Shown here piece by piece: positions 1 through 64,000 of a DNA stretch of 64,000 nucleotides. The stretch lies in IMG/VR virus record IMGVR_UViG_3300021960_000024, one strand, 5' to 3'. The notes below the pieces were generated by a model. That model did no database searches, was not told the origin of the DNA, and saw nothing but the letters and a program-made list of their open reading frames with translations. The stretch comes from an uncultured virus (IMG/VR IMGVR_UViG_3300021960_000024). Lineage: Duplodnaviria; Heunggongvirae; Uroviricota; Caudoviricetes. Numbering within the stretch: the stretch's first letter is position 1; every line of letters starts with the position of its first letter. A program made the position numbers and the translations under genes.

Positions 1-2
1 GT

Positions 3-143
3 TTAGTAAATTATAAAAAGGGTTTGCAAGTAGACCACGTTGACCGCAATCTAAATAATCTTGCGCCTGAAAATCTGAAGACTTACTGCCCTAATGCACA
101 CAGCGGTAAGACTATGAAGTATGAGGATTATATGCCAAAATGA
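3..143 (+). CDS. 3' end of an HNH endonuclease-like gene (partial)
   Basis: Frame 3 reads LQVDHVDRNLNNLAPENLKTYCPNAHSGKT, an HNH pattern; its stop overlaps the next ATG (ATGA). Confidence 0.65.
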   Translation, partial: LVNYKKGLQVDHVDRNLNNLAPENLKTYCPNAHSGKTMKYEDYMPK

Positions 144-820
144 AAACTCTTGTATTCCAAGTTAATATAAAACCTAACGGAGTCAAAACTTCTGGTAAAA
201 AAAGGTTTGCATACTCCAATTCTCTTTATGGTTTTTCGAATCAAAGAGCTAAAGAGTATGCAGATAAATTTGGTGCAGATTATTTTTGCTTATATAACAC
301 AGATTGGTTAGGAAATGAATATGCACCATGTTATCATACATTGTATGTTTACAAAATGTATGAAAAATATGATAAAATATTATACCTAGATAGTGATGCT
401 GTAATAACAAAGAATTGTCCAAATATTTTTAATTATGATAAATTTTCAGCAGTTTTAGATAATTCAAAACAAACACCATCAGGAAAAGAAAAAAATAAAA
501 GAAAGTTACAAATACACAATCTTCCAGATACACATGATTATTTTTGTAGTGGAGTGATACTGTTTGATAAAAAGTTCTTACAATTAACTGAACAGTATTG
601 GAAAGATGAATTAGATTGTTGGAAAAATATTAAAAATGGTCAACACGACCAATCTGTGTTTAATGTGTTAGTTTCAAAATATTATGGAAAATATAATTTG
701 CTTGATGATGATTGGGGTTCTTGGAGAAAACGGGGCAAATTTATAACTCATTACAGTGGCCCAACACAAACATCAGAATGGACAGAAGAAAAGTTTTTGA
801 AATGGGAAAATAAACTATGA
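140..820 (+). CDS. GT-A fold glycosyltransferase (GT8-like)
   Basis: ILYLDSD DxD motif, YFCSGVILF, HDQSVFN, ITHYSG; AT-rich. Confidence 0.75.
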   Translation: MKTLVFQVNIKPNGVKTSGKKRFAYSNSLYGFSNQRAKEYADKFGADYFCLYNTDWLGNEYAPCYHTLYVYKMYEKYDKILYLDSDAVITKNCPNIFNYDKFSAVLDNSKQTPSGKEKNKRKLQIHNLPDTHDYFCSGVILFDKKFLQLTEQYWKDELDCWKNIKNGQHDQSVFNVLVSKYYGKYNLLDDDWGSWRKRGKFITHYSGPTQTSEWTEEKFLKWENKL

Positions 821-1986
821 AAGTAGCTATTGTTCTAGGACGAGGCCTCGAAGGGTGCGGCGTTACAAAATACACTGTAGAGTTGGAGAGGTGGTTACTC
901 AACAACTCCCATACTCCTATGGTATATGCATCTAAGGATAAAAGGTGGTCTAGGAACGACTCCCATGAGATACAGAATTTGGTTCATGTGCGCTTTGACA
1001 GAGATGATTTTGATGAGGTATATGAGGGCTGTAAATCTTCTGATATAATTATATTCAATTCATTGCCGTCTGTTAATCACAGTAAAAAATGTCAAGATAG
1101 GTTTTCTACACTGTTGGACTTAGGCGTATATAGGGTGTTTATTCAGCATGATCATAACAAGTCTTCACTAAGAAGAAATACATTGCTACAAGATTCTTAT
1201 GAAAAATCAGATATAATATTTGCACACTCCGACACTGGTGATTTTGCAGACATGGTAAATACTCCAAATCTTTTTGATATGAGGAAAATAGATATTCACC
1301 TGATGCAGCCGGGAATATCATTTTCTCACTATGAGGAATATCATAAATCTGTTGAAGATCAAGATATGAAGCATCACAAATGGATAGGTCGGACTGCGAG
1401 ATGGAAAAACTATGACATGATGTTTGACTTCCATAATAAGTATTTAAAAGAATTGGGCCACTTAACCACATTTGAAGGAATAGATAAGAGTCCTATTTTT
1501 ATAGAGTTAAAAAACAGGAATAAGTTTTTTGATGAAGTTGTCTCAGAAATAGACACTGTAGACTTGAAAGATAGATATGGAAAGGATGCGACAGTCTTTG
1601 GTGATTATAACAATAAAGCAATGCTGAATAGGATGTCTAAATGTGGATTTGGCTATCAGCTGTCTTTACTTGAGGACAGATTTATTAAAAAATCCCTAGA
1701 GTTTACTCACTTAGAAATTGTTGCAGTTGGAGCAATACCTGTGTTCAGAAAAGAATACGGGGATATTTGTATTCATCGTTACTATGATAAACCTTTAACA
1801 GAATTAGATAGTGGAACAATATGGCTTTCTAATGACAACATGGAAGAGTGCAGAGATTTGGTGCAAGAGCTGTCTGCTAATGAAGAGCTAAGGAATGAGT
1901 ATAGAGATAAATCATATGATACATATTCTTACTATGACAGCAAATATACTACCCAAGATATGTTTGATAAAATGGAGATGTCATGA
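817..1986 (+). CDS. agt: DNA alpha-glucosyltransferase (T4 AGT-like)
   Basis: RGLEGCGVTK, QHDHNKSSLRRN, WIGRT, RMSKCGFGYQLS, SLEFTHLE and DSGTIW match T4 alpha-glucosyltransferase along the whole length. Confidence 0.9.
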   Translation: MKVAIVLGRGLEGCGVTKYTVELERWLLNNSHTPMVYASKDKRWSRNDSHEIQNLVHVRFDRDDFDEVYEGCKSSDIIIFNSLPSVNHSKKCQDRFSTLLDLGVYRVFIQHDHNKSSLRRNTLLQDSYEKSDIIFAHSDTGDFADMVNTPNLFDMRKIDIHLMQPGISFSHYEEYHKSVEDQDMKHHKWIGRTARWKNYDMMFDFHNKYLKELGHLTTFEGIDKSPIFIELKNRNKFFDEVVSEIDTVDLKDRYGKDATVFGDYNNKAMLNRMSKCGFGYQLSLLEDRFIKKSLEFTHLEIVAVGAIPVFRKEYGDICIHRYYDKPLTELDSGTIWLSNDNMEECRDLVQELSANEELRNEYRDKSYDTYSYYDSKYTTQDMFDKMEMS

Positions 1987-2930
1987 AGCATATAATCGCA
2001 CAGAATGATTATGGTGAGAAAGAGACTTTCGAAAAGTGGAACGGTAAGTTCTATGATGAGTCTGATCTTGATGAGATTATTCATGTAACAGAGGACACTG
2101 TTATCATGCGTCCAGATGCTACACTTGACGGGCCCGGTGTTCCTATTGCTTATGTGGTAACAAACGCATTTCCGAATGATGATATGCGTGATGTTCTCTA
2201 CGGCATCGAAGAATCATCTACCATGCGAGCAAACTGCGCTGGTCCTATTGACCCTGTTGAGATGGCTGCTAAGGGATTGATTGAGGGTGAACACTACAAA
2301 CTTCGATCTCCCAATTCGTACCATGTGAGAGCAAAAAATGGAAAGTGGGGTATGATCGCATATGCCAACGAAATTAATAGTGTAATGATTGGTGCAAAGC
2401 GTGGACGTTTCACAGGAAAAATTAACATATCCAATGAGGAGAGTTGGAAAGCACTGAAACCATTGTGTGTTGATGTTGAACGTGCATTTGAGAAAGCTGC
2501 ACCAGAGATTTACAATAGACAGAAAAGGTTCGCAGAAGAAGCAATCGCACCAGAGCATCGTCATGGTATGATCACCACCCTGAGTGCTAATCGGTACAGT
2601 GCAATGCAGAGTAAAGCCATGGGTGTTCATAGCGATGGGAAGGATGTTGAGTATACAACTATGAGTTGTCATCGACAGGGCGAATACACGGGAGCGTATC
2701 TCTCATTCCCTCGTTGGGGTGTAGGTCTTGATCTCCCAGATAACTGCGTGTGTATTGCAGATTCTAAGAGTTTACACTGTGTTACACCTATTAGTGGTGC
2801 GGGACAGAGGTTCACAACGGTCTGTTATACGGACCTATCTGCAGCCACAATAGGGAATATGGGTAAGTCAGAACGCCTGATTGGCCGGTTTGCGAAAAAA
2901 GAAGTTGGAAGTTTAGAAGACTTTATTTAA
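1983..2930 (+). CDS. TET/JBP-family 2OG-Fe(II) 5-methylpyrimidine dioxygenase
   Basis: HSD (HxD), GAYLSFP, LHCVTPI and RFTTVCY; adjacent to AGT. Confidence 0.8.
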   Translation: MKHIIAQNDYGEKETFEKWNGKFYDESDLDEIIHVTEDTVIMRPDATLDGPGVPIAYVVTNAFPNDDMRDVLYGIEESSTMRANCAGPIDPVEMAAKGLIEGEHYKLRSPNSYHVRAKNGKWGMIAYANEINSVMIGAKRGRFTGKINISNEESWKALKPLCVDVERAFEKAAPEIYNRQKRFAEEAIAPEHRHGMITTLSANRYSAMQSKAMGVHSDGKDVEYTTMSCHRQGEYTGAYLSFPRWGVGLDLPDNCVCIADSKSLHCVTPISGAGQRFTTVCYTDLSAATIGNMGKSERLIGRFAKKEVGSLEDFI

Positions 2931-2963
2931 TTGACACCCATCAAGTTCCATGTTATATAAATA
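2931..2963 (+). promoter_or_regulatory. Overlapping sigma70-like promoter and T4 late promoter
   Basis: TTGACA at 2931; TATAAATA at 2956-2963. Confidence 0.65.
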
Positions 2964-2991
2964 GAATATAACACACACATGGAGCAGTTGA

Positions 2992-4128
2992 ATGTCTAAT
3001 CTCAATCACTATGTACGGCAATTACGCCCCCGTACAGAATCATATACTCCCCATGTTGATAGGATTCAAGACTTATTCATCAATGAAGCATCCTTTAGTC
3101 CTAAAAACTTTCCATCTGATGTGGGAAATAATAAATCTTTTTCTGGGGCTGGTGAAAGAACAACATATGCTCCAACAAATAAATCAACATACAAATATAA
3201 ATCTGGATTTGAAATAGCGAAAAAAACTTCTTTGTATTCTAAAACAGGAAAAGTTATAAAGTCATTAGTTCCTAATGACAGGGTTTATTTTACAATTCCA
3301 GCAACTCTACACAAATCTGATGAATTTGGTGTTCGTGGTAGAAAGACAACCCTTGCTCCAATATCTCTCAAAGGATTTGATAAAAGTGTAGATGGATACG
3401 TTTCAATAAGTGCTGTTATTAAACCTAGTGGTTCTTCTCAAGGAAGAGTTGGGGCTGGATCAAAAACACAAGATATGGTTGCACAGCATGTTATGGAGAT
3501 ATGTCGAAAAAAAGATTTACAATTTTCAAATGATTATAAGATTGCAAAAGCGGGTTCTACAATCCCTGACTTGGTAATGTCAATTGAAAATAAAAGTGTG
3601 CAATTTGAAATAAAAGGTACAAGTAATAGAAAGTCACAAGTTGCTTTTTTTGATAAGTCTGTTAAAAGGTCTGGTCGTAAACCAGAATTGCTTGAAGAAA
3701 TTGCAAATGTATATATTGATACATTAAAGACAAAAGACGGCAGCGTAAAAAAACTTATGTTAAAAGGTGGTTTTCCTAGTACTTTTGTAGGACTTATTGA
3801 TTTTTATAACTCAATAGATTCAAAAATTGGTTTAGCTGGCGATGAAGGTGTAATAAAATCTGGAAAATTACCATCTGATTTTATTACCGATGACACAACA
3901 ATAATGACTAAGATGTATAAAATAATATTGGATCACTTTGAGGAAGGTGGTGATGACTATTTTGTTATTCATAGTAGGTCTGATGATTCTTTTGAAGTAT
4001 ATTTTTTAGATAGAGGAGATAATATATTAAAAATGCCATCATTACCAAAGTTCAAGAGATTTGAGTTGTCAACATATGGGGGTGCTTCGAGTGGTTCTAC
4101 CCGTGTTGGACTTAAAATTAGACTTTAG
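2992..4128 (+). CDS. Hypothetical protein with a possible PD-(D/E)xK nuclease domain
   Basis: PDLVMSIENKSVQFEIKG resembles PD...ExK; late promoter upstream. Confidence 0.45.
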   Translation: MSNLNHYVRQLRPRTESYTPHVDRIQDLFINEASFSPKNFPSDVGNNKSFSGAGERTTYAPTNKSTYKYKSGFEIAKKTSLYSKTGKVIKSLVPNDRVYFTIPATLHKSDEFGVRGRKTTLAPISLKGFDKSVDGYVSISAVIKPSGSSQGRVGAGSKTQDMVAQHVMEICRKKDLQFSNDYKIAKAGSTIPDLVMSIENKSVQFEIKGTSNRKSQVAFFDKSVKRSGRKPELLEEIANVYIDTLKTKDGSVKKLMLKGGFPSTFVGLIDFYNSIDSKIGLAGDEGVIKSGKLPSDFITDDTTIMTKMYKIILDHFEEGGDDYFVIHSRSDDSFEVYFLDRGDNILKMPSLPKFKRFELSTYGGASSGSTRVGLKIRL

Positions 4129-4136
4129 GCTATGAA

Positions 4137-5087
4137 ATGAAAACCTTCAAATCTTTATACGAGGAATTAGATTTCGCACCCACCCACTCATTAAGTTTAT
4201 CAGAACTTATTTTTACTAGGGCAGAAGGTGGATCAGATATGTCAGCCACTTCAGCAAGAAGAGGTGGGCCCGGTTCGCCAGCAAATCATATGTGGCTGCC
4301 TCTATCTGGTTCTATGTTTAAAAGAATATTCCCGAAGGAAGTTAGAGCAACAGTTTTTCATGTAACAAGAATGACTAGTTTTGATCAGTTGTATGAAATT
4401 CAAAACTCAAATCGTTCCATATCTGCATTTACAAATATGGATAGAACACCTATTGTTACAGGTGTACAGGGAGGTAGTGGTCTTGTTATTGAACTGGAAG
4501 GAAACATTCTTGCATCAGCAAAAGAAGACCTTATGTCTATTCCCGAAACATCTGGTAGAAGGATGCTTGGTTTTAATTGGTTCAGAGGTCCGTGGGGTTC
4601 CGATGATGTTGCGAAAATGCAAAAGGGTCTTGAAATACTATTGAAAGTATTAATCAAAAAATATGGAAAGGCCTTTGGTGGAGATGCACCAAAAGGTAAA
4701 GATGATTTTGACAAATGGATGCACATGCATGTGACATATAAAAATTCTAAAGTAAAGAATGCTGGTAGGATAATGCAATCTCTTATAAAGGATTATTTGG
4801 ATGGTGTTGAGAAAGTATTCAAAAAAAATTCCACACAGGTTCAGAATACATTGACTCGTTATATGCAACGCCGCAAAACTGATGATAACTGGGATGAGAT
4901 TGTAATTGATGATTTTGAAATCAAAAAGATATGGATAATAGAGGATGCAGATGAAATGGTGTCTGGTGCTGCTGAAGAGTTTAAATCTAACATAACATCT
5001 ACAAAATTACCAGTTGAGATTATTAATGCCCAGAACATGGAAGCACATGTAAGGGGTGTTGCAATGAAAGCTACAGGTAGGTCATAA
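4137..5087 (+). CDS. Hypothetical protein, possibly capsid-internal
   Basis: N-terminus MKTFKSLYEE resembles the T4 capsid targeting sequence. Confidence 0.55.
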   Translation: MKTFKSLYEELDFAPTHSLSLSELIFTRAEGGSDMSATSARRGGPGSPANHMWLPLSGSMFKRIFPKEVRATVFHVTRMTSFDQLYEIQNSNRSISAFTNMDRTPIVTGVQGGSGLVIELEGNILASAKEDLMSIPETSGRRMLGFNWFRGPWGSDDVAKMQKGLEILLKVLIKKYGKAFGGDAPKGKDDFDKWMHMHVTYKNSKVKNAGRIMQSLIKDYLDGVEKVFKKNSTQVQNTLTRYMQRRKTDDNWDEIVIDDFEIKKIWIIEDADEMVSGAAEEFKSNITSTKLPVEIINAQNMEAHVRGVAMKATGRS

Positions 5088-6691
5088 TGATAACACAATC
5101 AGATTTAAATCAGGTAGAGAAGTTTGCTGATCGGCTGTTCGCAAAGGTTGGTATTGATGTTGAGTTCACTCGACACTTTATGGACAGGGTGAATGATGCT
5201 CGTAATAAGAAAGCTATCACACCTTCTGAACTGACTCGTCTATTCAAGCAGTCTTATTCCAAGTATGGTAAAAAGATAGCACAGCTTGGTCCTGATGCTG
5301 AAGCTGTTATCAATGACATGAAGACGAATATCAATATGCCATTTGTCCTCAACCTCAAAGGAAATGAGTTGGAGTTGGTGGCAAAAACTGTTATGCGTAA
5401 GAAAGATTTCAAGACCTCTGGTCCTAAGTTGTCTTTTGAACAGTTTAGTAATTGTTCACCTTTTGTTCTTTTAGAAGATAAGGGCGGTAAGAACCTTCAC
5501 CTAGAACATCTAGAGGATGAAATCCTTAACTATGGTGTTGATGGTGGTAGAGCTGCACTTGACTTCCTGCGTTCTCTACGAGATATGTTAGCGGGTTCTG
5601 CACGTTCTAGTGTAAACATGACGGTTAAGTGGGACGGTGCGCCAGCAATCTTCGCTGGTGTTGAACCAGAGACAGGTGACTTTTTTGTGGCCAAGAAATC
5701 TGTGTTCAACGTCTCACCCAAATTATACAAGACCACAAAAGAAATTGATGATGATTTATCTGGAGCATTAAATGAAAAGTTTAAAGTTGCACTTAAAGAG
5801 TTTTCTAAGTTGGGTATCAAGGGGGTACTACAGGGTGACCTCATGTTCACTGACGATGTGGAAACAGAGACTATCGATGGCGTCAAGTATTATACTTTTC
5901 AGCCTAACACTATTGTCTATGCTATACCTGTTGATAGCGTATTAGGTAAGACTATCAACAAAGCAAAAGTTGGTATTGTCTGGCACACCACATATACAGG
6001 CGACACCCTACAGGGTATGAAAGCATCATTTGGTGCAGATATTAAGGGGTTAAAAACCCCATCAAGCGTTTGGATGGATGATGCAACCTATAAGGACGCA
6101 TCTGGTAAGGCAACATTTACTGCTAAAGAGACAGAACAAATCACTGCTATACTATCACAAGTTGGTAAAACTTTCAATAAGATCAATGCGAATGGGTTGC
6201 GTAAGTTCCTTACTGTGCAGAACGGTATGACGGGTGCGATTGCTGGTGCATCTCTCAAGACTTACAATAACTCAAAGGTTCGTGCGGGTGAGAAGATTAG
6301 TAATCCTGCCGCACATGCAAAGGGTTATGAGAAGTGGGTGTTTGACTCTATCCAGAAACAGATTGACAAGGTTAAGAGTGACAAGGGTAAGAAGAAATAC
6401 ACTGACATGCAGAAAGAGTATGGCCGTGAAATAAAAAAACACACTCAAAATCTAACACAGATCATCACCTTCCAGAACCTATTGGTTGATGCGAAGATGC
6501 AAATCGTTAATAAACTAAATAGTGTAAAGGGTTTGACCGATACTTTTATTAAGACCTCAAATGGATTTAAGGTGACAAATCCCGAAGGATATGTTGCTAT
6601 TGACAGAATAAGTGGTGGTGCAGTTAAACTGGTGGACCGTATGGAGTTCTCGTTTAACAACTTCACAGCTGTCAAAAATTGGATGAAATAG
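5087..6691 (+). CDS. Conserved phage protein (DUF6267-like) with ligase-type nucleotidyltransferase motifs and an extra N-terminal domain
   Basis: KNLHLEHLED, VKWDGAP (KxDG), QGDLMF, PEGYV, VKLVDR. Confidence 0.6.
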   Translation: MITQSDLNQVEKFADRLFAKVGIDVEFTRHFMDRVNDARNKKAITPSELTRLFKQSYSKYGKKIAQLGPDAEAVINDMKTNINMPFVLNLKGNELELVAKTVMRKKDFKTSGPKLSFEQFSNCSPFVLLEDKGGKNLHLEHLEDEILNYGVDGGRAALDFLRSLRDMLAGSARSSVNMTVKWDGAPAIFAGVEPETGDFFVAKKSVFNVSPKLYKTTKEIDDDLSGALNEKFKVALKEFSKLGIKGVLQGDLMFTDDVETETIDGVKYYTFQPNTIVYAIPVDSVLGKTINKAKVGIVWHTTYTGDTLQGMKASFGADIKGLKTPSSVWMDDATYKDASGKATFTAKETEQITAILSQVGKTFNKINANGLRKFLTVQNGMTGAIAGASLKTYNNSKVRAGEKISNPAAHAKGYEKWVFDSIQKQIDKVKSDKGKKKYTDMQKEYGREIKKHTQNLTQIITFQNLLVDAKMQIVNKLNSVKGLTDTFIKTSNGFKVTNPEGYVAIDRISGGAVKLVDRMEFSFNNFTAVKNWMK

Positions 6692-9600
6692 ATGCGTAGT
6701 TTTAGAGATATCACAGAGGCTAAAGAAACTGTTGTATTTGGATTCGGGCGATTCAATCCAAGCACGATTGGGCATGAGGCCGTTATTGAAAAGATTGCTT
6801 CTGTAGCAAAGGGCAATCCATTCTTCATATATCCTTCACATACTACTGGACCTAAAGACCCCCTAAAGCACTCTTTGAAAATTGCGTGGATGAGGAAGAT
6901 GTTCCCCAAGTACAAGAAGAACATTATTGTAGATAATAAGGCTAAGACTGTCATCAACATTGCTGAGAAACTATACAAGGATGGTTATAAAAATTTAATT
7001 CTTGTGGTGGGAAGCGATAGAGTAAAAGATTTCGATGCCCTATTACAGAGATATAATGATGCACCAGACAAAAAAGGTAATCAGTTATTCAAATTTGATT
7101 CAGTCAAAGTGGTATCTGCTGGAGAGCGTGATCCAGACGCAGATGGCGTTGCCGGGATGTCTGCCAGCAAACTCAGAAAGGCAGCATCAGATGGTAAGTT
7201 TGATGATTTCAAAAAGGGTATCCCCAATACATTGAACGACGCCGATAAGAAGAAATACTATTTTGACGTTCGTAAGGGAATGGGTATTCGTGAAGATCGT
7301 GAAATGGGTGATGACTATGATTCATTGCGTGACGCATACCTCACAGGTAAAATCTGGAACGTGGGTGAAGTTGTAGAGGCAAACGGTGTCAGTGGTGAGG
7401 TTGTTCGTAAGGGTACAAACTATCTCTCATTCGTAGCAGAGGATGGCAAGGTTCATAAGGCATGGTTACATGAGATTGAACTTGATGAAAATGCAGTTTA
7501 TGATAAAGCAAAGTCTGATGGTGCTAAAAAATATAAAGATAGTCTTGGTGGTGAAGAACCTCTGACAGCAGCAAAATCTCCCTTACAGAAATTGAAGGAC
7601 TTTGACAAGTCCAGAGTTGCCGCAGGGAAACCACCCATATTTACAGACAAGAAACCACCTAAGTTTATTCGCATGAAGAAGTCTGGCCAGATGACAATCA
7701 TGAATGTCCCTACTGATGAGATTGATAAATTTGAGAAGAAGGGTTATGAGATCATTGAAGACCTTGTTGGTGTAAAACCAATGAGTGGACCTACAGGACA
7801 AATCTTTGCATTGAAGTCTGAAGAAGTTGAACTTGATGAAGACGCTTCTGTATATAAAAAGACTGCAAGAAAAAATAAAAATGACGTTACATATGCTTTT
7901 GGTAGAACTAAAAAACTAGATGGCCAACCAAAAGAAAAGGGTGGATATTGGGTTTGGAAATTGTCGAAGAATTATGATGGAAAAGTTCGGGGTGGTATTA
8001 GAGACTCATGGGTATATGTTGACAAAGATTTATCTTATTCTGATGCTGTCAAATTAATGAATAAAAAACTTGGACGCAAAGAATTTAAAGAATCAGTTAA
8101 GGGTAAGGATGTTGGATATCCAGATGAATCCGTGAAGATTGGTAAGAAACACTATATCATCTACAAAGGTGGTAGAGAATGGTATGGATATGAAGTAGAC
8201 AAAGAGGGAAACCAGCTTGGAGACTCAGTGTTTGATCCTAAAAAGAGTGAACTGATAAAGATTCTCGCACAAGAAGGTCTTGATGAGCGCAACTACGCTA
8301 AAGAATATGCGAACTACCAAGGAACACCAGAACAGATTGCTCGCCGTTCTTCAAGGAACAAGGCTCGTAGGGCAATGGGTGACAAGGCAGTTAAGGGTAT
8401 GGACGTTGGACATAAAGACAACAACCCAATGAATAATGACCCGAAGAACCTACGCATGGAGAAACCATCTGACAATCGTAGAGAACCACGGTTGCGTGAA
8501 GAAGATGAACTTGATGAGATGGCATGGTATAAAGTAGCACTAGCAAAAATTAGTCAATTGAACCACCCTAAAGATTATGAAAAAATGGTCAAACAATATG
8601 CGACTGATATGAAAAAACCAGAACTAAAAAACAAGACTGCTTCTTATATCGCAGCAAGGATTGCCCAAGAGTATAAGGGTCAGGACGGTAGAAAACTTGT
8701 TCAGTATATCAACAAACTGGTTGATGATGGTAAACTCCCCAAAGAACTCAAGGCAGAATATCAAGAAGAAGAAACAATGCAGACCTTTAGTGATTTCGTT
8801 AAACAGATCAATGAAGTCAAACAGGACAAAGATGTAGATGATAAGGATGGAACACAACCAGCAAAGTACTATGCTGGTGATATGGCCAAGTCTACCAAAT
8901 CCAAGAGGGATGCACACTTCAAAGCAAAGAAGGCTGGTCCTGCTCCCGGCGATGCTTCTGCAAAAACTAAACCATCCACACACACTAAGAAGTTCAAACA
9001 GATGTATGGCGAAGCGTTACCTAAAGATGCAGATCAAGGTGATTACATCGATGATTTCGAGAAGTCAGATGCACCACAGTTTAGGGGTAAGTCTAAAGAG
9101 AAACGCAAGGACATGGCTATCGCTGCATACCTCTCAAAGAATGAGTCTTTCCTAGATAACGTCAGTAGGATGTTGGGTGAGGATGGTCACACTGATGTTG
9201 CGTCTATGAAAAATAAGGTTCAGATTGCTCAAAAAGCATTGATGAAGATGCAAGGTGAACTGACTAAACTTGGTGATGAAGATGATCTACCTACATGGTG
9301 GACAAACAAGGTTGCAACAGCAGTATCTCGTTTGGATGACATGTCTGATTATATTGACACTCAGGTTGAAGATGTGCAACTAGACGAAAAGATTGAAGGT
9401 CTGGTGAAGAAGGCAGATAAGTCTGGTATGCCATACTCTATTCTCAAGAAGGTATATGATCGTGGTATGGCAGCATGGAAAACGGGTCATCGTCCCGGCA
9501 CCACACCACAACAGTGGGCGATGGCGAGGGTCAACTCGTTCGTGACAAAGAGTAGTGGCACTTGGGGTAAAGCAGATAAAGACCTAGCAAAACAGGTTGA

Positions 9601-9964
9601 ACAGATAGAAGAAGCTTGTTGGGTTGGATACAAACAGGTTGGTATGAAAAAGAAGGGTAATAAAGAAGTGCCCAATTGTGTACCAGAAGAGAAAGAATTA
9701 AATGAGTGGGGTGAGATTGAGGAAGAATCAGAATATCAAGGTCGTAAAGTCACTCTAAACAAACCCACAAAGGGTGATGTTAAAAAGTCCAAGGTGTATG
9801 TCAAGAATGAAAAAGGCAATGTAGTCAAGGTCGAGTTCGGTGATCCTAACATGCAAATCCAAAAAGACATTCCATCACGAAGGAAAAGCTTCCGTGCTCG
9901 ACACAATTGTGATAATCCCGGCCCAAAATGGAAAGCAAGATACTGGTCATGCAAAGCATGGTAA
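6692..9964 (+). CDS. Multi-module polyprotein: HxGH-type nucleotidyltransferase domain, then HNH-like and other small modules separated by acidic linkers
   Basis: FGRFNPSTIGH, VVGSDRV, SAGERDPD, MSASKLR; DVGHKDNNPMNN; YDRGMAAWKTGHRPG; ACWVGYKQVG..PNCVP; RKSFRARHNCD..YWSC; linkers EIELDE, EEVELDE, EGLDE, EEDELDE. Confidence 0.75.
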   Translation: MRSFRDITEAKETVVFGFGRFNPSTIGHEAVIEKIASVAKGNPFFIYPSHTTGPKDPLKHSLKIAWMRKMFPKYKKNIIVDNKAKTVINIAEKLYKDGYKNLILVVGSDRVKDFDALLQRYNDAPDKKGNQLFKFDSVKVVSAGERDPDADGVAGMSASKLRKAASDGKFDDFKKGIPNTLNDADKKKYYFDVRKGMGIREDREMGDDYDSLRDAYLTGKIWNVGEVVEANGVSGEVVRKGTNYLSFVAEDGKVHKAWLHEIELDENAVYDKAKSDGAKKYKDSLGGEEPLTAAKSPLQKLKDFDKSRVAAGKPPIFTDKKPPKFIRMKKSGQMTIMNVPTDEIDKFEKKGYEIIEDLVGVKPMSGPTGQIFALKSEEVELDEDASVYKKTARKNKNDVTYAFGRTKKLDGQPKEKGGYWVWKLSKNYDGKVRGGIRDSWVYVDKDLSYSDAVKLMNKKLGRKEFKESVKGKDVGYPDESVKIGKKHYIIYKGGREWYGYEVDKEGNQLGDSVFDPKKSELIKILAQEGLDERNYAKEYANYQGTPEQIARRSSRNKARRAMGDKAVKGMDVGHKDNNPMNNDPKNLRMEKPSDNRREPRLREEDELDEMAWYKVALAKISQLNHPKDYEKMVKQYATDMKKPELKNKTASYIAARIAQEYKGQDGRKLVQYINKLVDDGKLPKELKAEYQEEETMQTFSDFVKQINEVKQDKDVDDKDGTQPAKYYAGDMAKSTKSKRDAHFKAKKAGPAPGDASAKTKPSTHTKKFKQMYGEALPKDADQGDYIDDFEKSDAPQFRGKSKEKRKDMAIAAYLSKNESFLDNVSRMLGEDGHTDVASMKNKVQIAQKALMKMQGELTKLGDEDDLPTWWTNKVATAVSRLDDMSDYIDTQVEDVQLDEKIEGLVKKADKSGMPYSILKKVYDRGMAAWKTGHRPGTTPQQWAMARVNSFVTKSSGTWGKADKDLAKQVEQIEEACWVGYKQVGMKKKGNKEVPNCVPEEKELNEWGEIEEESEYQGRKVTLNKPTKGDVKKSKVYVKNEKGNVVKVEFGDPNMQIQKDIPSRRKSFRARHNCDNPGPKWKARYWSCKAW

Positions 9965-9966
9965 CT

Positions 9967-9982
9967 TATAAATATATAAATA
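9967..9982 (+). promoter_or_regulatory. Two tandem T4 late promoters
   Basis: TATAAATA TATAAATA. Confidence 0.8.
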
Positions 9983-10004
9983 GAATATAATAAAGGAAAA
10001 TCCT

Positions 10005-12074
10005 ATGTCAAATTACAGAAAAACAATGGCCGATGCGCTGCGAGAGATGTATCCTCTTACAGAAGAAACACAGATTGATGAAGCTACAATGAGTTCTTCT
10101 CAGATTGCGAGGTTGAAGAAGGCATATGAACCTATGCGTGATAAGAAAATCAGTACATCAAATGCTGATAAACTTAGCGCAATGATGGACAAGGTGGGTA
10201 AAGACAAAGAAGCACTTATCCAGTTGTTCAAGGCAGATATTCCTTTCGTGAGTCAAAGCGCAGTAACAAAACTTATTACCAAGCACAATATGAAGGGTGC
10301 TGAGATTAATAAGTTGCGGGAAGAAGTTGACCTTGATGAGGTAGGTGGTTCTGCGTTTGGTGGAACGATTGATAAAATTCAAAAGGTTGTTGATGACAAA
10401 CAAGCAACGAAGATTGATGGTGTAATGGTTGATACATTTACCGCATCATTAATTATGAAAATCTGGAACGGGGTGAGCAAACAAAATCAAGACAAGATGA
10501 GGAAAATGAAAGTCACTCAACTTGCTAAGACAGCATATAAATTGGCAGGAATGAAAGAAGAAGTTGACCTTGATGAAGGAACAAAACAGGTTCTTGCTCA
10601 CGGTGGTAAAGGTAAGTATAAAGTAACCAAGGATGGCGACAAAATTGAAATTAAGTTCGGTGGTAAGGTAGTTGGAACTGCTGACTTTGACCGTGGTGCT
10701 GACAGTTTCTTCGTAAGTATCAAAGGTGAGAGGGGTCAGAAGTCTTTTGACGATGCACAGGCAATTGCTGATTATTTCGCAAAGAACAAGATTACAGAAG
10801 AAGTTGACCTTGATGAAGGTAAGATGAACAATGCGACGATGCAAGCAAACAAACCAAGGATTGAAAAAGCAAAAAAACTTATGGGACCATCTACAAGTAG
10901 AAAAGAAGGCATACAGATGGTTGCAAAGGGTATGCCCACTTCAGAAAAAGAGGCTACTAAACTGGTTGATACAGTTATAAAGATGATGCAGAAAAATGAT
11001 TATGTCCCAGAAGAAGTTGACCTTGATGAAAATCTCAATGAAATAAAAAAACATATTGATGATCTTGAGTTTGAGCGCAAGCGTATGACAACCAGCGGTC
11101 AGGAATCTTTAGATAAACTCATTAAGGCAAAAAGTATAAAAGATGCCAGAAAAGCATTTGATGACATGTATGGATACGAATATGACAGAGTTACATCAAG
11201 TGGTCAAGAGAGTATGGTTAAGATTGGTAAAATGTTGGGTATGAAGATGGAAGAAGTTGACCTTGATGAAGATAGTCTTGATGATTTTCAAGACTTTGCC
11301 CGTCTTTATGGTGGGGGTGATGAAATTTATGTTGTAACTCAAGGAAAAGATTCTAATTCACTAAAAGTTATTGGTATAGAAAAAGACCCAAATAAAGCAA
11401 AGAAAATCCGTGATCGTGCTAAAGGTGCGAGAGCAAGTCTTTGGGGTCAGATGAAAAGTTCTCAAAAAGTTCTCAAACTAAAAATTGGTGATCCTGTTAG
11501 TTTTGAAGACTCCAAAAATAAATTATCTTTTATTGAAGAAGTTGACCTTGATGAAGGTAAGATGTCTCAGTTGCACCAGTATATCAAAGACAAGAAGAGC
11601 GCAGAAGAGATTGCGAAACTGATGAAGTTGGATGTCAAAACAGTTAAGTCACTGATGAGCAGTCATCATCCAGAGGATGTTGAAGAGGGTGCTGCAGCTG
11701 ATGCTCGCCGTGCAATGCGTGCTGATCCAGATATGCGACAGAAGTTCTCAAAGGATGTTTCTGCAACTGATGATGACGTAAAGGGCGCATCAAAGAATAT
11801 TATGATGCAGATGCGAAAAGCACAATCACTGAATGGTCGTTTCGATGTTGAGTTTGCTGACGGTAAGAAAGTTAAAATTCCTGCGAAGATGGCTATTGCA
11901 GTTCAGCAGAAATACAATTCTATGAAAAGACCCGCAGAGAAAGAAAAGTTTCAGGCAAAAATTGGAAAGTCTTACAAGGATATGTTGTCTGCACTTAAAG
12001 AAGAACTACAACCCAAGAAAGAATCAATCCTAGAACGGATGAATAGAAAACTCAAGGAGAATAAAGATGGGTAA
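10005..12074 (+). CDS. Modular polyprotein with six EEVDLDE linkers (putative protease-processed internal head protein)
   Basis: EEVDLDE occurs six times, separating mostly unrelated 60-90 aa modules; late promoters and RBS upstream. Confidence 0.7.
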   Translation: MSNYRKTMADALREMYPLTEETQIDEATMSSSQIARLKKAYEPMRDKKISTSNADKLSAMMDKVGKDKEALIQLFKADIPFVSQSAVTKLITKHNMKGAEINKLREEVDLDEVGGSAFGGTIDKIQKVVDDKQATKIDGVMVDTFTASLIMKIWNGVSKQNQDKMRKMKVTQLAKTAYKLAGMKEEVDLDEGTKQVLAHGGKGKYKVTKDGDKIEIKFGGKVVGTADFDRGADSFFVSIKGERGQKSFDDAQAIADYFAKNKITEEVDLDEGKMNNATMQANKPRIEKAKKLMGPSTSRKEGIQMVAKGMPTSEKEATKLVDTVIKMMQKNDYVPEEVDLDENLNEIKKHIDDLEFERKRMTTSGQESLDKLIKAKSIKDARKAFDDMYGYEYDRVTSSGQESMVKIGKMLGMKMEEVDLDEDSLDDFQDFARLYGGGDEIYVVTQGKDSNSLKVIGIEKDPNKAKKIRDRAKGARASLWGQMKSSQKVLKLKIGDPVSFEDSKNKLSFIEEVDLDEGKMSQLHQYIKDKKSAEEIAKLMKLDVKTVKSLMSSHHPEDVEEGAAADARRAMRADPDMRQKFSKDVSATDDDVKGASKNIMMQMRKAQSLNGRFDVEFADGKKVKIPAKMAIAVQQKYNSMKRPAEKEKFQAKIGKSYKDMLSALKEELQPKKESILERMNRKLKENKDG
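10320..11555 (+). repeat. Six identical interspersed 20-nt direct repeats GAAGAAGTTGACCTTGATGA
   Basis: Copies start at 10320, 10557, 10797, 11010, 11250 and 11535; a one-mismatch copy starts at 7820. Confidence 0.95.
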
Positions 12075-12738
12075 GAAATATTTTGACACAAAGGCCGAAA
12101 CCCTTGAATCTTCGATTCTAGGTATTTGGACAGAAGCAGCTAAGAAGGTTGCTGAAACCAATAAGAACAACAAGTCTGATGATGGTGAGGGGTTGGATGC
12201 AGTTCAACCAAAAGCAGTCAAGAAGAAGTTCAAGGATCGTAAGGACAAGGACATCGACAACGATGGCGACACTGATGATTCTGATGAGTATCTTCACAAT
12301 CGTCGTAAGACAGTATCTAAGGCAGTAAAAGGTAAAGTAAAGGATGAAGGTAACGCATTTGGAATGGCACTAAAGGCTGCCAAAGACAAGGGCGAAAAAA
12401 CTTTCGTTGTTGCTGGTAAGACATATGAAGTCAAAGAAGGTTTCGCAGTACCAGAAGATGTTCCTGCAATGGAAGTCGGTACAGACCGTTATCGTGAATA
12501 TGCTGTTGGTCTTACGCCCGGTGAAAATGCTGAGTTTGCAGCTGCACAGGACTTCAAGGTTGCTTCAATGAAGGAAGCACTTGCAAAAGTTTGGGGTTTG
12601 GACGAGAAAGCACTTGACAAATCCTCTAAAGAAGAGTATGATGAAGAAGATGAGGAGCTCAAACCCGTTAAAGGTTCAAAGACCATGACAGGTGGAAAAG
12701 TTGCTAAAGTGGATACTAAACCCAAAATTGATGGTTGA
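12067..12738 (+). CDS. Highly charged hypothetical protein with a DxDxDG loop
   Basis: DIDNDGDTDDSDEYL; RBS AAGGAG. Confidence 0.55.
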   Translation: MGKKYFDTKAETLESSILGIWTEAAKKVAETNKNNKSDDGEGLDAVQPKAVKKKFKDRKDKDIDNDGDTDDSDEYLHNRRKTVSKAVKGKVKDEGNAFGMALKAAKDKGEKTFVVAGKTYEVKEGFAVPEDVPAMEVGTDRYREYAVGLTPGENAEFAAAQDFKVASMKEALAKVWGLDEKALDKSSKEEYDEEDEELKPVKGSKTMTGGKVAKVDTKPKIDG

Positions 12739-12739
12739 A

Positions 12740-13255
12740 ATGAAAAGTTTGTTGGATATGATGGAGGCATCTGGTGATGATCTCCCAGAAATTTATTGTG
12801 ATATGGATCAGGTTCTATGTAACTTTATCGGCCGTGCTGAGGAAGTTATTGGAATGCCCTTTGCTAAGTTCGGTAAGGATGACCGCTGGAACAAGATTAG
12901 GGACACAAAGGATTTCTGGGCAAATCTAGATTGGATGCCGGGTGCAAAACGGTTATATTCTTTTATTCAGAAGTATGACACGCACATCCTTTCTGCTTAT
13001 TCTGATCGTGATGATAACTCTAGGGCGGGTAAGAAAAAGTGGTTGAAGAAGAATACTAAGATTAAACCTCGTAACATCAATCTTGTGAAGAGGGCAGACA
13101 AACAGAAATATGCAACTACTGATGGGAAACCAAACATATTAATTGATGATTATAAGAAGAACATTGTAGAGTGGGAATCTAAGGGTGGTATAGGCGTTTA
13201 CCACACAGAAGTGGGTAAAACCATTGCTGAGTTGAAGCGTCTAGGTTTCAAATAA
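12740..13255 (+). CDS. HAD-family 5'(3')-deoxyribonucleotidase-like protein
   Basis: IYCDMDQVL, ILSA, ILIDD motifs. Confidence 0.8.
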   Translation: MKSLLDMMEASGDDLPEIYCDMDQVLCNFIGRAEEVIGMPFAKFGKDDRWNKIRDTKDFWANLDWMPGAKRLYSFIQKYDTHILSAYSDRDDNSRAGKKKWLKKNTKIKPRNINLVKRADKQKYATTDGKPNILIDDYKKNIVEWESKGGIGVYHTEVGKTIAELKRLGFK

Positions 13256-14031: not shown

Positions 14032-14280
14032 ATGATCGATCTTGATAAGATTAATGAACGCAAACAAGTTATTGCGAAAGACATTGAAGCGGTTCGGACC
14101 CGTATGGCAGAAGCGCAGAAGAAATTCGCAGAGGACCAATCATTGTTGCAGGCACTTATGGGTGCATATCAGCAGTGTGACGCCTTTGCAAAAGATTTTA
14201 ATGATGATACTCCCAATGAGGAGAGTGATGTAGAGAATAGTGAAGACCTAGAGGATGTAAAACCTGGCGGTACTGACTAA
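14032..14280 (+). CDS. Small coiled-coil hypothetical protein
   Basis: RBS AAAGGAG; late promoter upstream. Confidence 0.6.
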   Translation: MIDLDKINERKQVIAKDIEAVRTRMAEAQKKFAEDQSLLQALMGAYQQCDAFAKDFNDDTPNEESDVENSEDLEDVKPGGTD

Positions 14281-20634: not shown

Positions 20635-20643
20635 GAGCAAGAA

Positions 20644-24747: not shown

Positions 24748-24786
24748 ACGAATCGAATAACCTAAATATCCATAGGAGAATACCGT

Positions 24787-25065: not shown

Positions 25066-25069
25066 TTGT

Positions 25070-29068: not shown

Positions 29069-29069
29069 A

Positions 29070-37590: not shown

Positions 37591-38114
37591 GTCACTTTAG
37601 GTTTATCGAAAGAAACATTGACGTAAGTGATATCCTCGCTGATATAAAGGATGAGGATTGGGCTGTAGCAGGATCACTACAAGGTGCTTCTGGAGATACG
37701 AAACCGTATGGATTTCTACCCCTCACTATGGCTGCGGTTAAACACCCTGACGACGACCCTAAAAAGACTGAACTTCAACAGAACACTCCTATGTACTATC
37801 GTTATCCCGGTATCAGGAAATGGTTGAAGTCTTATAAACTGCACCGACATTCAAGAGCAGCGTTCTTTAGATTGAGGCCAGGCGATACACTAGGTCTGCA
37901 TGTTGATGAAGGTGACTACTATCTGACACGGGACAGGTATCATCTATCGTTGCAGGGTACATATCTGTACACGGTTGAAGATGAGTCACATCAGATTGAT
38001 CCCGGCACATTTTTCTGGTTTGACAACAAACGTCCACATATGTCATATAACAATGGTGATGTTGATAGGCTGACATTTGTGTGGGACGTTCCCAAGGGTA
38101 GGAGAAATCCATGA
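37587..38114 (+). CDS. Asp/Asn beta-hydroxylase-like 2OG-Fe(II) oxygenase
   Basis: LHVDEG, RYHLSL, WFDNKRPH. Confidence 0.75.
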   Translation: MSHFRFIERNIDVSDILADIKDEDWAVAGSLQGASGDTKPYGFLPLTMAAVKHPDDDPKKTELQQNTPMYYRYPGIRKWLKSYKLHRHSRAAFFRLRPGDTLGLHVDEGDYYLTRDRYHLSLQGTYLYTVEDESHQIDPGTFFWFDNKRPHMSYNNGDVDRLTFVWDVPKGRRNP

Positions 38115-44042: not shown

Positions 44043-44065
44043 TCCCCGTGTGTTATATATAAGAT

Positions 44066-44475: not shown

Positions 44476-44493
44476 CTTTATTCAAAAAGAGTA

Positions 44494-44522
44494 TTGACAA
44501 ATATATAATAACCTGTTATACT
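44494..44522 (+). promoter_or_regulatory. Sigma70-like promoter
   Basis: TTGACA-17-TATACT. Confidence 0.75.
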
Positions 44523-44532
44523 CTGTATATAA

Positions 44533-46673: not shown

Positions 46674-46747
46674 GCTGGTATAGTTAAACGGTATAACGAG
46701 GGTTTTGTAAACCTTAATTGAGAGTTCGATTCTTTCTACCAGCACCA
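46674..46747 (+). tRNA. trnT: tRNA-Thr(TGT)
   Basis: Acceptor GCTGGTA/TACCAGC, anticodon arm AGGGT-TTTGTAA-ACCTT, T loop TTCGATT, encoded CCA. Confidence 0.92.
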
Positions 46748-53577: not shown

Positions 53578-54021
53578 CTATTTATACGAAATACCTAGAT
53601 GATCTTCAGTTAAAATCTTGAACTCCATACCATTATCTGCACACCATTCTGTTGCATATCGCCATTTAGCATCATTCACACCATAGGTTATAACCTCGTT
53701 CATCCATCGTCTGGTGCGTCTCTTGGGTTCCTTGGGTGGTTTGCACTGCACCTTGGGTTTAACCTCTATGATCATCTTCTTGATTTGACCATCAGCCTGT
53801 TTGACCTTGATGTAGAAATCTGGAAAGTATCTGTGCATACGCCCATCCTTGGGTGATAAATAGGGTATAATGATCTCTTCACTACCCCATTCAATTATGG
53901 ATGTGCTGTTGTCACAGTATACCATAAACTTACGTTCCCAGAGAGAACGATAAATTATGTTCTGTGGATCACCCTTATATTTTTTCGGATTGATCGGCGT
54001 ATATCGACCTTTGTATGACAT
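53578..54021 (-). CDS. gp4: Head completion nuclease (T4 gp4)
   Basis: YRSLWE, WGSEE, HRYFPDF, IEVKP, FKILTE. Confidence 0.92.
   Translation of the reverse strand: MSYKGRYTPINPKKYKGDPQNIIYRSLWERKFMVYCDNSTSIIEWGSEEIIIPYLSPKDGRMHRYFPDFYIKVKQADGQIKKMIIEVKPKVQCKPPKEPKRRTRRWMNEVITYGVNDAKWRYATEWCADNGMEFKILTEDHLGISYK
53579..53586 (-). promoter_or_regulatory. T4 late promoter
   Basis: TATAAATA on the minus strand. Confidence 0.7.
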
Positions 54022-55734: not shown

Positions 55735-55738
55735 TTGA

Positions 55739-57357: not shown

Positions 57358-58062
57358 ATGAAGACATACAACGAACTACAGGAAGGGTTGCAAGACCCCA
57401 ATATATTTAAAGCATTCTTTCTCGCCGGTGGACCAGGCAGTGGTAAGTCTTTCGTTGTCAGAAAGTCTACCGGCGGTACAGGACTCAAGATAGTCAACTC
57501 TGATGATGTCTTTGAGAAGTATCTCAAAGATGCTGGTCTAGAAATGGACATGACAACGGCAAAGGCTGAGCGTCAGAAGGAACCTAGAGACAAACTGCGT
57601 GATCGAGCAAAAGTGGTGACGCAAAAAAAGCAGGATAACTATGTTGATGGTCGCCTTGGACTCATCATAGATGGCACGGGGCGTGACTATGATAAGATTG
57701 CAAAACAATCAAACGAGCTTAAAAGACTTGGTTACGACACTCACATGATATATGTCAATACCTCGTTGGACGTTGCACTTGCTCGTAATGCAGAGCGTGA
57801 ACGTAAGGTACACGCCTCAATTGCAACAAAATCGTGGAAAGACGTTCAGTCCAACCTTGGTAAATTCAGTCAGCACTTTAGGGGCAACCTGATTATTGTT
57901 GATAATAACGATGTAAAAGTGGATGACGGCACATTGTTCAATAGTGTGTTGAGACAAGTCAGAGGTTTGCTCAGGAAAAAGGTGCGAAATCCTACAGCAC
58001 ATCAGTGGATTGAGATGGAGATGAAGCGCAGAGGCATCACAAAAAAACCCAAGGGATTCTAA
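57358..58062 (+). CDS. Zeta-toxin-like P-loop kinase with a capsid-targeting-like N-terminus
   Basis: MKTYNELQE; FLAGGPGSGKS, VNSDD, IIDGTG, ALARNAERER. Confidence 0.75.
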   Translation: MKTYNELQEGLQDPNIFKAFFLAGGPGSGKSFVVRKSTGGTGLKIVNSDDVFEKYLKDAGLEMDMTTAKAERQKEPRDKLRDRAKVVTQKKQDNYVDGRLGLIIDGTGRDYDKIAKQSNELKRLGYDTHMIYVNTSLDVALARNAERERKVHASIATKSWKDVQSNLGKFSQHFRGNLIIVDNNDVKVDDGTLFNSVLRQVRGLLRKKVRNPTAHQWIEMEMKRRGITKKPKGF

Positions 58063-60544: not shown

Positions 60545-60554
60545 GCGAGAGATT

Positions 60555-62744: not shown

Positions 62745-62904
62745 CCGCATTATGGTATAAATGGTATATTCACCTAAGAGAAGAGGGTTATAGTATAGGC
62801 ACTGCACTTGTAGCTGGATGGTGGAATGCAAGTATAAACGCACAATACTGGACAGAAGGTCCAAAGAAATGGGTTGACAATAGGCCAGATAGGTATTATA
62901 GAGG

Positions 62905-63441
62905 ATGAAAATCATTGACGACTATTTGGATCAGGATGATGTCGATGCACTGAATAACCTGCACATAGAGTATGCGAAGGTACACTGGGTGGGTGCTGCA
63001 TCGAACCCCGACACCAATGCACTGACAAAGATGGTGCATTCAACGTATAACTATATAAAAGACCCTGCATTGGGTGCTACAGCGTGGTATAACGTGCGCC
63101 CAGTGGACCCCGTGTGGCACAGTGACATTCTATCCTATTGTGACGAATATCCCATAAATTCACTGCCTGAGAGTACATTCATCTATTATATGAGGTCACC
63201 AGACAGTGGTGGCCACCTTGAGATAGGTGGTCCAGGCCCTGTATCAGATTGGAAATGCACCACAACATTCGAACCAATACCCAATCGACTGATATACTTC
63301 GATGCAACATTGACGCATAGAGTGCAACCATATGAGGGTAATAGAGTATCAATAGGCATAGTATGGTGGAAGATCACACCAGATAGATATGAAGAGCAGA
63401 AAATAGACGAATACAACGTACTAGAGAGGGTATGGAAATGA
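62905..63441 (+). CDS. 2OG-Fe(II) oxygenase
   Basis: WHSD, GGHL, NRLIYF, HRV, RVSI. Confidence 0.7.
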   Translation: MKIIDDYLDQDDVDALNNLHIEYAKVHWVGAASNPDTNALTKMVHSTYNYIKDPALGATAWYNVRPVDPVWHSDILSYCDEYPINSLPESTFIYYMRSPDSGGHLEIGGPGPVSDWKCTTTFEPIPNRLIYFDATLTHRVQPYEGNRVSIGIVWWKITPDRYEEQKIDEYNVLERVWK

Positions 63442-63731
63442 GCAGAATTGAACCAAACACATATTCATATGTGACAAAAGACGGATATGAACATATGGCT
63501 GTCATGATGGAAGAAGGTAAGTACAAGGGTGTAGCATGGGGTTATACCAAGATAAATCTACCAAAAACAGAAGATGGCCGTGCAGTTCTATCCTTTGAGT
63601 TCGAAATACTGGATAATGCGAAGCTTGAATTTGAGGACATAGATGAGGAAGAGTTCATGAACCTCATGGGTGATATACTCGCTGATCAGATAGATGAACA
63701 GTTAGAGACAGGCAGGGTGAAGTTTGCGTGA
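63432..63731 (+). CDS. Acidic hypothetical protein
   Basis: GKYKGV..Y; MGDIL. Confidence 0.5.
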   Translation: MEMSRIEPNTYSYVTKDGYEHMAVMMEEGKYKGVAWGYTKINLPKTEDGRAVLSFEFEILDNAKLEFEDIDEEEFMNLMGDILADQIDEQLETGRVKFA

Positions 63732-64000
63732 TGAACCTATTCGATATGAACAGTGATAACATTACCATTAACATAGATGGTAAAGACATAGAGATGAAAC
63801 CAACTATATGCTTCGGTAAGGTATATGACAAGTGGGGGGTGAGCAAGTGTGGTAAGTTATGGAGTATAAGATTTAATAGACACATAAAGGGCGTGGCGTG
63901 TTTTATCAGGAGAAAAGATGGTTCGAAAAATATTACATGTATAAAAACTTTCATGTCGGTGCCAAAGGGATTTTGGGAAGATGGTTCTGGTTTACCTCAG

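Follow-up and report, generated by a model that had tools for sequence, protein, structure and literature searches.

Which force removes nearly every copy of a short sequence from a phage genome, and what do the few remaining copies have in common? The question is raised by a 64,000-nucleotide stretch of DNA from an uncultured virus of the Caudoviricetes (IMG/VR record IMGVR_UViG_3300021960_000024), analysed at its full length and called the window below. The sequence CCWGG (W = A or T) is nearly absent from it. The initial annotation attributed this scarcity to a host system that cuts CCWGG, with tolerance only of sites overlapped by a GpC cytosine that the phage itself modifies. The analysis described here makes it probable that cytosine hypermodification limited to GCY (Y = C or T) shields the restriction sites that it overlaps, and that sites that cannot be shielded were purged from the genome.

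CCWGG sites and the bases that flank them

A recount of the window gave exactly the four CCWGG sites reported before, at 14263, 37878, 57433 and 63232. In 100 dinucleotide-preserving shuffles the mean was 77.9 sites (sd 8.0), and all 100 contained at least four. A maximal-order Markov model predicted 59.7 sites, and an order-2 Markov model of the window plus 6,580 upstream bases predicted 94.9. Near-absence was therefore confirmed against the Markov expectation (4 vs 59.7-94.9). The upstream bases were taken from the IMG/VR contig L002, which is 100% identical to window positions 1-12927 (0 mismatches over 12,927 positions) and continues upstream for another 6,580 bases; whole-genome counts were replaced by counts in these 70,580 bases and in relatives. 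Finally, 200 synonymous-codon shuffles gave 61.0 ± 6.2 sites, with a minimum of 39, compared with the 4 observed. The shuffles included 82 of the 88 greedy open reading frames (ORFs) of the window, after dropping six minus-strand ORFs without a Pfam match located inside a plus-strand gene block. The surviving sites are the following:

14263..14268, plus strand: CCTGGC, in-frame CCT-GGC (Pro-Gly) in the ORF at 14032-14277
37877..37883, plus strand: GCCAGGC, with a flank on either side, in-frame CCA-GGC in the ORF at 37578-38111 (Asp/Arg hydroxylase/cupin-like)
57433..57438, plus strand: CCAGGC, in-frame CCA-GGC in the ORF at 57358-58059 (P-loop kinase/zeta-toxin-like)
63232..63237, plus strand: CCAGGC, in-frame CCA-GGC in the ORF at 62905-63438 (2-oxoglutarate (2OG)-Fe(II) oxygenase)

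Removal of the sites acts at synonymous positions, and the protein sequence is kept. Although CCA and CCT represent 70% of all Pro codons in the window, the 31 Pro-Gly pairs use CCC 19 times, CCG 8 times, CCA 3 times and CCT once, where 21.8 CCA or CCT codons were expected. The CCC or CCG coding of Pro-Gly described in the initial annotation thus applies to 27 of the 31 pairs, and its five examples all hold CCCGGN within 1 base. The other two frames behave alike. No xCC-(A/T)GG codon pair was found among 414 AGG or TGG codons, with about 12 expected (an estimate based on CC-ending codons being 0.029 of all), and the C-C(A/T)G-G frame is represented by none against 17.1 expected.

All four survivors read CCWGGC, as had been noticed, and the site at 37878 is also preceded by G. 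We defined a site as flanked, or shielded, when it has a 5′ G or a 3′ C, so that a GCY cytosine overlaps it. The nulls predicted that a fraction of 0.24-0.29 of the CCWGG sites would be flanked (0.29 by synonymous shuffle), which gives four of four a probability of 0.003 to 0.007, a weak result alone at n = 4. Plain avoidance of restriction sites, unconnected with modification and with flanks due to chance or to the Gly codon GGC, would have to be considered at this sample size, and palindrome avoidance is widespread in this phage family.

The decisive evidence came from relatives. The gene content of the window by Pfam (gp32, gp59 helicase loader, DnaB-like helicase, T4 baseplate proteins, PhoH, ThyX, RNR and many 2OG oxygenases) identifies a Melnitz-like T4-type marine/estuarine myophage, and the 20 sequencing runs that contain the stretch come from metagenomes of estuary, marine and seawater origin. 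The closest cultured relatives are four records of Methylophilales (OM43) phage Melnitz (MZ577095-98), filed under Kyanoviridae, with amino-acid identities to the window genome of 66% for gp32, 73.7% for a C5-cytosine methyltransferase (MT) and 56% for a TET-type dioxygenase, whose Melnitz counterpart is the ORF adjoining the methylase. A megablast search of window positions 20000-26000 against 50,697 phage records matched nothing. Among uncultured relatives, 76 loci minus L002 and nine distant loci left 66 TET-bearing loci.

In these 66 loci, 85 of 89 distinct CCWGG sites are flanked (null share 0.25), and the proportion is 60 of 62 in the non-redundant set. Expected counts were calculated with an order-2 Markov model after masking repeated 16-mers, which kept 222,015 of 480,422 bases; unshielded sites numbered 2 against 156.7 expected, and shielded sites 60 against 66.0. 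The complete genome of Melnitz (141,548 bp) has 68 CCWGG sites and all are flanked (null share 0.24, p about 4e-43), with no unshielded site against 112.3 expected and 68 shielded sites against 35.0. A null share of just 0.29 by synonymous shuffle does not generate 68 of 68 or 60 of 62, and plain avoidance is highly improbable as the explanation of the flanks.

Two phages without TET, Mosig and P-SSM4 (bases 1-50000 of the latter), showed no G/C-flank bias. Mosig has 41 unshielded CCWGG sites (28.7 expected) and 16 shielded ones (14.3 expected); the corresponding counts in P-SSM4 are 35 (57.5 expected) and 4 (9.2 expected). The TET protein matched only the four Melnitz records among the 50,697 phage records, and neither Mosig nor P-SSM4 was found among the best 40 of 59 records matching the MT or in the organism tally, where Mosig would fall within an unnamed "and 2 more". 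The depletion, the gene content and a flank rule limited to TET-bearing phages are direct observations. Not every TET-bearing phage follows the rule at CCWGG: in a distant TET group (about 49% identity) there was no effect on this site (unshielded 10 vs 20.2 expected, shielded 7 vs 7.3), and the effect was present at CTGCAG (unshielded 0 vs 4.2, shielded 6 vs 1.5).

P-SSM4 displays a pattern of its own. Of its 39 CCWGG sites, 37 are preceded by A or followed by T (with such a flank 37 vs 46.1 expected, without it 2 vs 20.6; binomial 9e-5). P-SSM4 encodes other methyltransferases, and its tolerance of CCWGG may depend on a different flank.

Tolerance increased with the number of flanks. For sites with zero, one and two flanks, the window plus upstream bases contain 0 vs 69.5 expected, 3 vs 23.4 and 1 vs 2.0 (ratios 0, 0.13 and 0.5). 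The 51 relatives with a TET 71-86% identical to that of the window contain 2 vs 152, 47 vs 57.8 and 14 vs 5.5 (ratios 0.01, 0.81 and 2.5), and Melnitz 0 vs 112.3, 52 vs 32.6 and 16 vs 2.4 (ratios 0, 1.6 and 6.7). Such a gradient would be expected if a single modified strand protected a site in part and two protected it fully.

The rule is not confined to CCWGG. In Melnitz, all 15 CCGG sites are flanked (15 vs 16.3 expected; unflanked 0 vs 52.5), as are all 14 CTGCAG (14 vs 11.1; unflanked 0 vs 39.7) and all 3 CTTAAG (3 vs 9.3; unflanked 0 vs 33.4). In the relatives, the flanked sites are 61 of 74 for CCGG, 18 of 20 for CTGCAG, 14 of 15 for CCATGG and 9 of 9 for CTTAAG. When the flanking bases were tested individually, only G had an effect on tolerated sites; A, C and T had none. 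A preceding G gave no benefit to CGCG (flanked 21 vs 44.8, unflanked 46 vs 82.4) or to CATG (flanked 218 vs 338, unflanked 495 vs 608). The G-flank rule is valid for sites that start with CC or CT and not for those that start with CG or CA, and therefore the protective context is GC(C/T). Further specificity upstream of the flanking G was sought, and none that was convincing was found. The proposal that the composition records the target of the modification consequently stood as to the flanking G and had to be narrowed as to the motif: a modified GpC of any kind is too broad, since GCG and GCA do not protect. CCWGG, depleted as it is, turned out to be one of more than 20 purged sites.

A flank rule could also arise on the host side, from endonucleases that do not cut after G or from a host methylase acting at GCY. 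Composition alone is silent on who modifies, and the tie between the phage MT and GCY in this lineage is not direct. However, this explanation is very unlikely: five unrelated recognition sequences share one G-flank rule, the rule occurs only in phages with MT and TET and is absent from Mosig and P-SSM4, and it coincides with the GpC[C/T] specificity measured for this class of enzymes.

The cytosine modification genes

The modification cluster invoked to explain the flanks is real, and its methyltransferase lies outside the window. The gene order across L002 and the window is RimK, PolB, MT, SNF2/ResIII-HNH, glycosyltransferase (GT) family 8 (GT8), AGT-family glucosyltransferase and TET. The genes of interest are:

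L002:3667-4875, 1.7-2.9 kb upstream of window position 1: C5-cytosine methyltransferase (Pfam PF00145, E 3.4e-52)
L002:4936-6723, between MT and GT8: SNF2/ResIII-helicase-like protein of 595 aa with a weak C-terminal HNH match
140..820, plus strand: glycosyltransferase family 8-like protein (Pfam PF01501, E 3.5e-9)
817..1986, plus strand: DNA alpha-glucosyltransferase of the T4 AGT family (Pfam PF11440, E 1.7e-67, full length)
1983..2930, plus strand: TET/JBP-type 2OG-Fe(II) dioxygenase (Pfam Tet_JBP, E 4.1e-7, 29.8 bits, under the gathering score of 34.9)

The assignment of the last gene, below the Pfam threshold, was examined at the level of residues. H216-x-D218, H265 and R276, which correspond to the HxD...H iron ligands and the 2OG-binding Arg, are invariant across the 10 homologues aligned; comparison with PDB sequences returned no match at E <= 0.01. 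The MT has the motifs GSPPC and CENV in its alignment to 8yf3_A. MT and TET (L002:8563-9510) are on the same strand with three ORFs between them. The features of the phage C5-MT/TET/GT clusters described before (PMC8256090), i.e., a catalytic Pro-Cys in the MT, the TET ligands, proximity of MT and TET and adjacent GTs of the type acting on 5-hydroxymethylcytosine (5hmC), were all found. Melnitz has no counterpart of the SNF2/HNH gene, and its MT abuts TET directly.

At E <= 1e-30 the MT had 1,533 homologues, and the best 120 of the 1,533 included no informative names. Among proteins of solved structure, its nearest homologue is SpCmoX from Synechococcus phage S-B43 (8YF3; E 2.2e-73, full length), a GC-motif-specific cytosine C5-carboxymethyltransferase that uses Cx-SAM as the carboxymethyl donor and requires R350 (PMC12783734). 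Identity of the window genome's MT as a CmoX was rejected by this published criterion. SPPC is present, Leu stands at the position of R350 (...RIGLMVAP... vs ...RVGRMVPP...), and no CmoA partner was found within the 70.6 kb examined. Since the enzyme is paired with TET, its putative activity is the transfer of a plain methyl group.

The interval between PolB and DUF6267 varies between close relatives. One relative, L089, has amino-acid identities to the window genome of 91% in PolB, 96% in RimK and 92% in DUF6267. At the same locus, from PolB to the homologue of the gene at window 5087-6688 (L089:4166-7150), it carries a CmoX-type MT (8yf3_A E 1.3e-143, Arg350 present), a CmoA homologue and an ORF of 367 aa. 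This cassette stands in place of MT, SNF2/HNH, GT8, AGT and TET, and L089 has no TET or GT genes. Other loci (L086, L087 and L116) encode C5-MTs 38-43% identical. Judging from gene order, the locus next to PolB looks like an exchangeable cytosine-modification island. Eighty PolB-anchored loci were screened for relatives without the cluster; most of the contigs end soon after PolB, and L089 and L116, both without TET, carry zero CCWGG.

Purged palindromes, proposed mechanism and objections

The purge extends well beyond CCWGG. In the window plus upstream bases, no copy was found of CGCG (58.7 expected), AACGTT (20.0), GTGCAC (18.1), TGCGCA (15.6), GGTACC (14.3), RGATCY (about 92), the BsaI-type site GAGACC (29.8) or YACGTR, and CCTCC occurs 14 times against 60.8 expected. 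The most depleted hexamers among those tested are mainly palindromes or sub-words of palindromes. Each phage has its own spectrum. Melnitz has 7 GATC (230 expected) and no GGWCC (43 expected), Mosig has no ACGT (63 expected), and P-SSM4 has no CCGG (9.8 expected) or GCGC (11.9 expected). Close relatives differ as well: CGCG, absent from the window, occurs 16 times in the relative L021, where 16.2 are expected. The purged set is under lineage-specific selection, as expected from restriction enzymes. Purging of so many sites was surprising, given the very small genomes of the hosts.

Sites that contain a GCY internally would be shielded whatever their flanks. Of the 32 GC-rich hexamer palindromes (at least 4 G/C), the 10 with an internal GCY were found 59 times in the window plus upstream bases against 45.4 expected and 2 were absent; the 22 without it were found 8 times against 192.2 and 20 were absent (Fisher 1.6e-4 for 2/10 vs 20/22; 7.5e-4 leaving out words that contain CGCG). 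The same contrast in Melnitz is 65 vs 59.6 with internal GCY and 29 vs 325 without it.

The mechanism that would account for these observations starts after replication, when the MT would methylate the C of GC(C/T). TET would then oxidise the methylated C to 5hmC, and the two glycosyltransferases would put sugars on it. Type II endonucleases in the host population would thereby be kept from cutting sites that contain the modified cytosine. The shielding cytosine could be internal, as in GGCC, AGCT and AGCGCT, or could be created by a G preceding a site that starts with CC or CT (GCCWGG, GCCGG, GCTGCAG and GCTTAAG). One modified strand would give partial protection and two would give full protection. 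Sites that cannot be shielded, such as CGCG, GTGCAC, TGCGCA, RGATCY, AACGTT and unflanked CCWGG, would be lost by selection, mostly through synonymous codon choice. We infer from composition and gene content that the DNA carries GCY modification, in a chemical form that protects it, that the host has an enzyme cutting CCWGG, and that selection comes from host endonucleases.

The selective agent could instead be the phage's own nucleases. T4 nucleases cut cytosine-containing DNA, and if the nucleases of this phage cut unmodified host DNA at palindromes, the phage would have to lack or modify the same sites for its own immunity. The window encodes candidates in the nuclease-domain ORFs PDDEXK_15 (24373-24744), PDDEXK_1 (42998-43711) and TnsA-like (53581-54021, minus strand), an HNH domain within 6692-9964, and the SNF2/ResIII-HNH gene between MT and GT8; the flank rule would result just as well. 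However, more than 20 specificities would be required, the purged set differs among close relatives, with CGCG as the example given above, and Mosig and P-SSM4 purge many palindromes too, each with its own spectrum, in the absence of TET. Self-immunity is thus an unlikely origin of the purge.

A purely mutational origin was also considered, in which the unmodified C of CCWGG-type sites is hypermutable, for instance through host Dcm-type methylation and deamination, and the GCY-modified C is not. Mapping of orthologous sites, limited to 10 positions and anecdotal, showed that survivors and lost sites differ by single substitutions (e.g., GCCAGAC and GTCTGGT), which such a process would produce. 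It would not be expected to bring to zero many unrelated palindromes, some of them without a context prone to C-to-T change (AGATCT and CTTAAG), and depletion that is palindrome-specific and variable among close relatives is what selection by enzymes with defined target sites leaves behind. A mutational origin is therefore extremely improbable.

Several results weigh against shielding by GCY-limited modification as stated above. Flanked CCWGG is also scarce in the window plus upstream bases, 4 vs 25.4 expected, a six-fold depletion (Poisson 2e-7) for which the account in the initial annotation offers no explanation. The nearest relatives of the window mostly have no CCWGG at all. Instability of the cassette is a possible reason for the purge of flanked CCWGG in this lineage. 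Flanked CTTAAG is missing from the window (0 vs 4.7 expected), and two shieldable sites are depleted: flanked GCATGC (none in the window against 10.6 expected, and 7 vs 24.8 in relatives) and GCTAGC (1 vs 8.1 in relatives). The TET-less Mosig shows a milder form of the internal-GCY contrast (40 vs 33.6 with and 23 vs 69.3 without), and therefore that line of evidence is supportive only and is ranked below the flank rule. The flank signal at GCGC (unshielded 0 vs 27.9 expected) was rejected as independent evidence, since three of its four unshielded classes contain CGCG; avoidance of CGCG confounds it, and only TGCGCA is independent. The counts from relatives come from loci that share ancestry and are not phylogenetically independent. 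The GC(C/T) motif of the window genome's MT is one that we infer. The Melnitz host has a streamlined genome. Finally, S-B43, for which GC-motif modification was shown by experiment (PMC12783734), has no flank effect in the 50 of 214 kb counted: CCWGG is not depleted, and AGCT (46 vs 108 expected) and GGCC (10 vs 31.5 expected) are scarce.

Relation to known systems and biological meaning

The window shares several features with Melnitz beyond the flank rule and differs from it in the purge spectrum. Those that lie outside the modification cluster, together with other genes of the window, are:

25810-31591, plus strand: block of CsgG-like, FecR-like and CHASE2-adenylate/guanylate cyclase genes; Melnitz has a syntenic curli-type block
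44037-44523, plus strand: phage tmRNA with tag peptide ANDNANYGDYALAA; the Melnitz tmRNA is at the syntenic position
32051-32128, plus strand: tRNA-Arg(TCT)
46674-46747, plus strand: tRNA-Thr(TGT)
41332-42389, plus strand: sulfotransferase-family ORF beside an APS-kinase-like P-loop ORF, a possible sulfation module
6692-9964, plus strand: ORF of 1,090 aa with a Pfam mix of cytidylyltransferase-like, a short Gp23 stretch, HNH_3 and DUF5824, which may be a fusion or may carry a homing-endonuclease or intein-like insert

Bacillus phages such as SPbeta and phi3T encode their own methyltransferases and are not known to avoid the sites that these methylate. The window lineage resembles this classical avoidance in that palindromic Type II-like sites are lost through synonymous changes, and sites under the phage's own methyltransferase are kept. 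It differs in that a 3-base mark context overlaps the foreign site by one base, and in the dose effect of zero, one or two strands. Because of the one-base overlap, whether a site is avoided depends on the base beside it. Avoidance of restriction sites is classical in phages, as is protection by their own methylation; what is new is that avoidance hinges on a motif overlap of one base. A limited literature search on phage site avoidance, 5mYOX and Melnitz found no earlier report of a flank-conditional pattern. In the Melnitz paper (PMC9004378), a term search of the full text showed a type II DNA methylase as the only possible protection mentioned; TET, and palindrome in this sense, are absent from it.

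T4 offers a second comparison. Both phages have an AGT-family glucosyltransferase and, in the interpretation favoured here, sugar-5hmC as a shield against restriction. In T4 every C is replaced before replication via dCMP hydroxymethylase, whereas the route proposed for the window genome is post-replicative and limited to GCY. Most cytosines would stay plain, and therefore purging of sites would still be needed. The MT of the window genome is a full-length homologue of SpCmoX, an enzyme specific for a GC motif and encoded by a phage of the same family, but SpCmoX has R350 where the window enzyme has Leu.

A further close system is that of the TET-associated phage C5-MTs. Their main specificity is GpC[C/T], and two GTs were shown to attach both monosaccharides and disaccharides to the 5hmC formed (Burke et al. 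2021, PMC8256090). The clusters in contigs 43 and 14 of that work share with the window genome a marine origin, a C5-MT and a TET encoded on one strand within five genes of each other, and a pair of glycosyltransferases that includes a member of the T4 5hmC-GT type. Their MT specificity equals the protective context deduced for the window lineage. Unlike them, the window genome has the SNF2/HNH gene inserted in the cluster. Those enzymes were assayed in E. coli, and the work did not include an analysis of the site content of a natural phage genome, which is what was studied here.

These results bear on the role of GpC-limited TET-type hypermodification in phages. In a follow-up preprint (10.1101/2023.12.21.572611), the authors argued against broad restriction protection, which they judged unlikely because the modification is limited to GpC. 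The site statistics are evolutionary evidence for protection at single-base resolution, with the remaining gap covered by avoidance. On balance, we lean towards a broader interpretation, that in an abundant clade of marine myophages, sugar hypermodification added after replication and only at GCY works as a shield against restriction, paired with wholesale purge of the sites that it cannot cover. Flank-conditional counts alone would then give the in vivo motif, the graded protection by one and two strands and more than 20 specificities of small-genome marine hosts, and the cassette would be swapped between TET-type and CmoX-type at one locus. Because Melnitz, which shows the pattern, is in culture together with its host, OM43 strain H5P1, the idea is directly testable. 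More generally, counting sites according to their flanking bases could reveal, for uncultured viral contigs, both the modification motifs and the restriction pressure exerted by the hosts.

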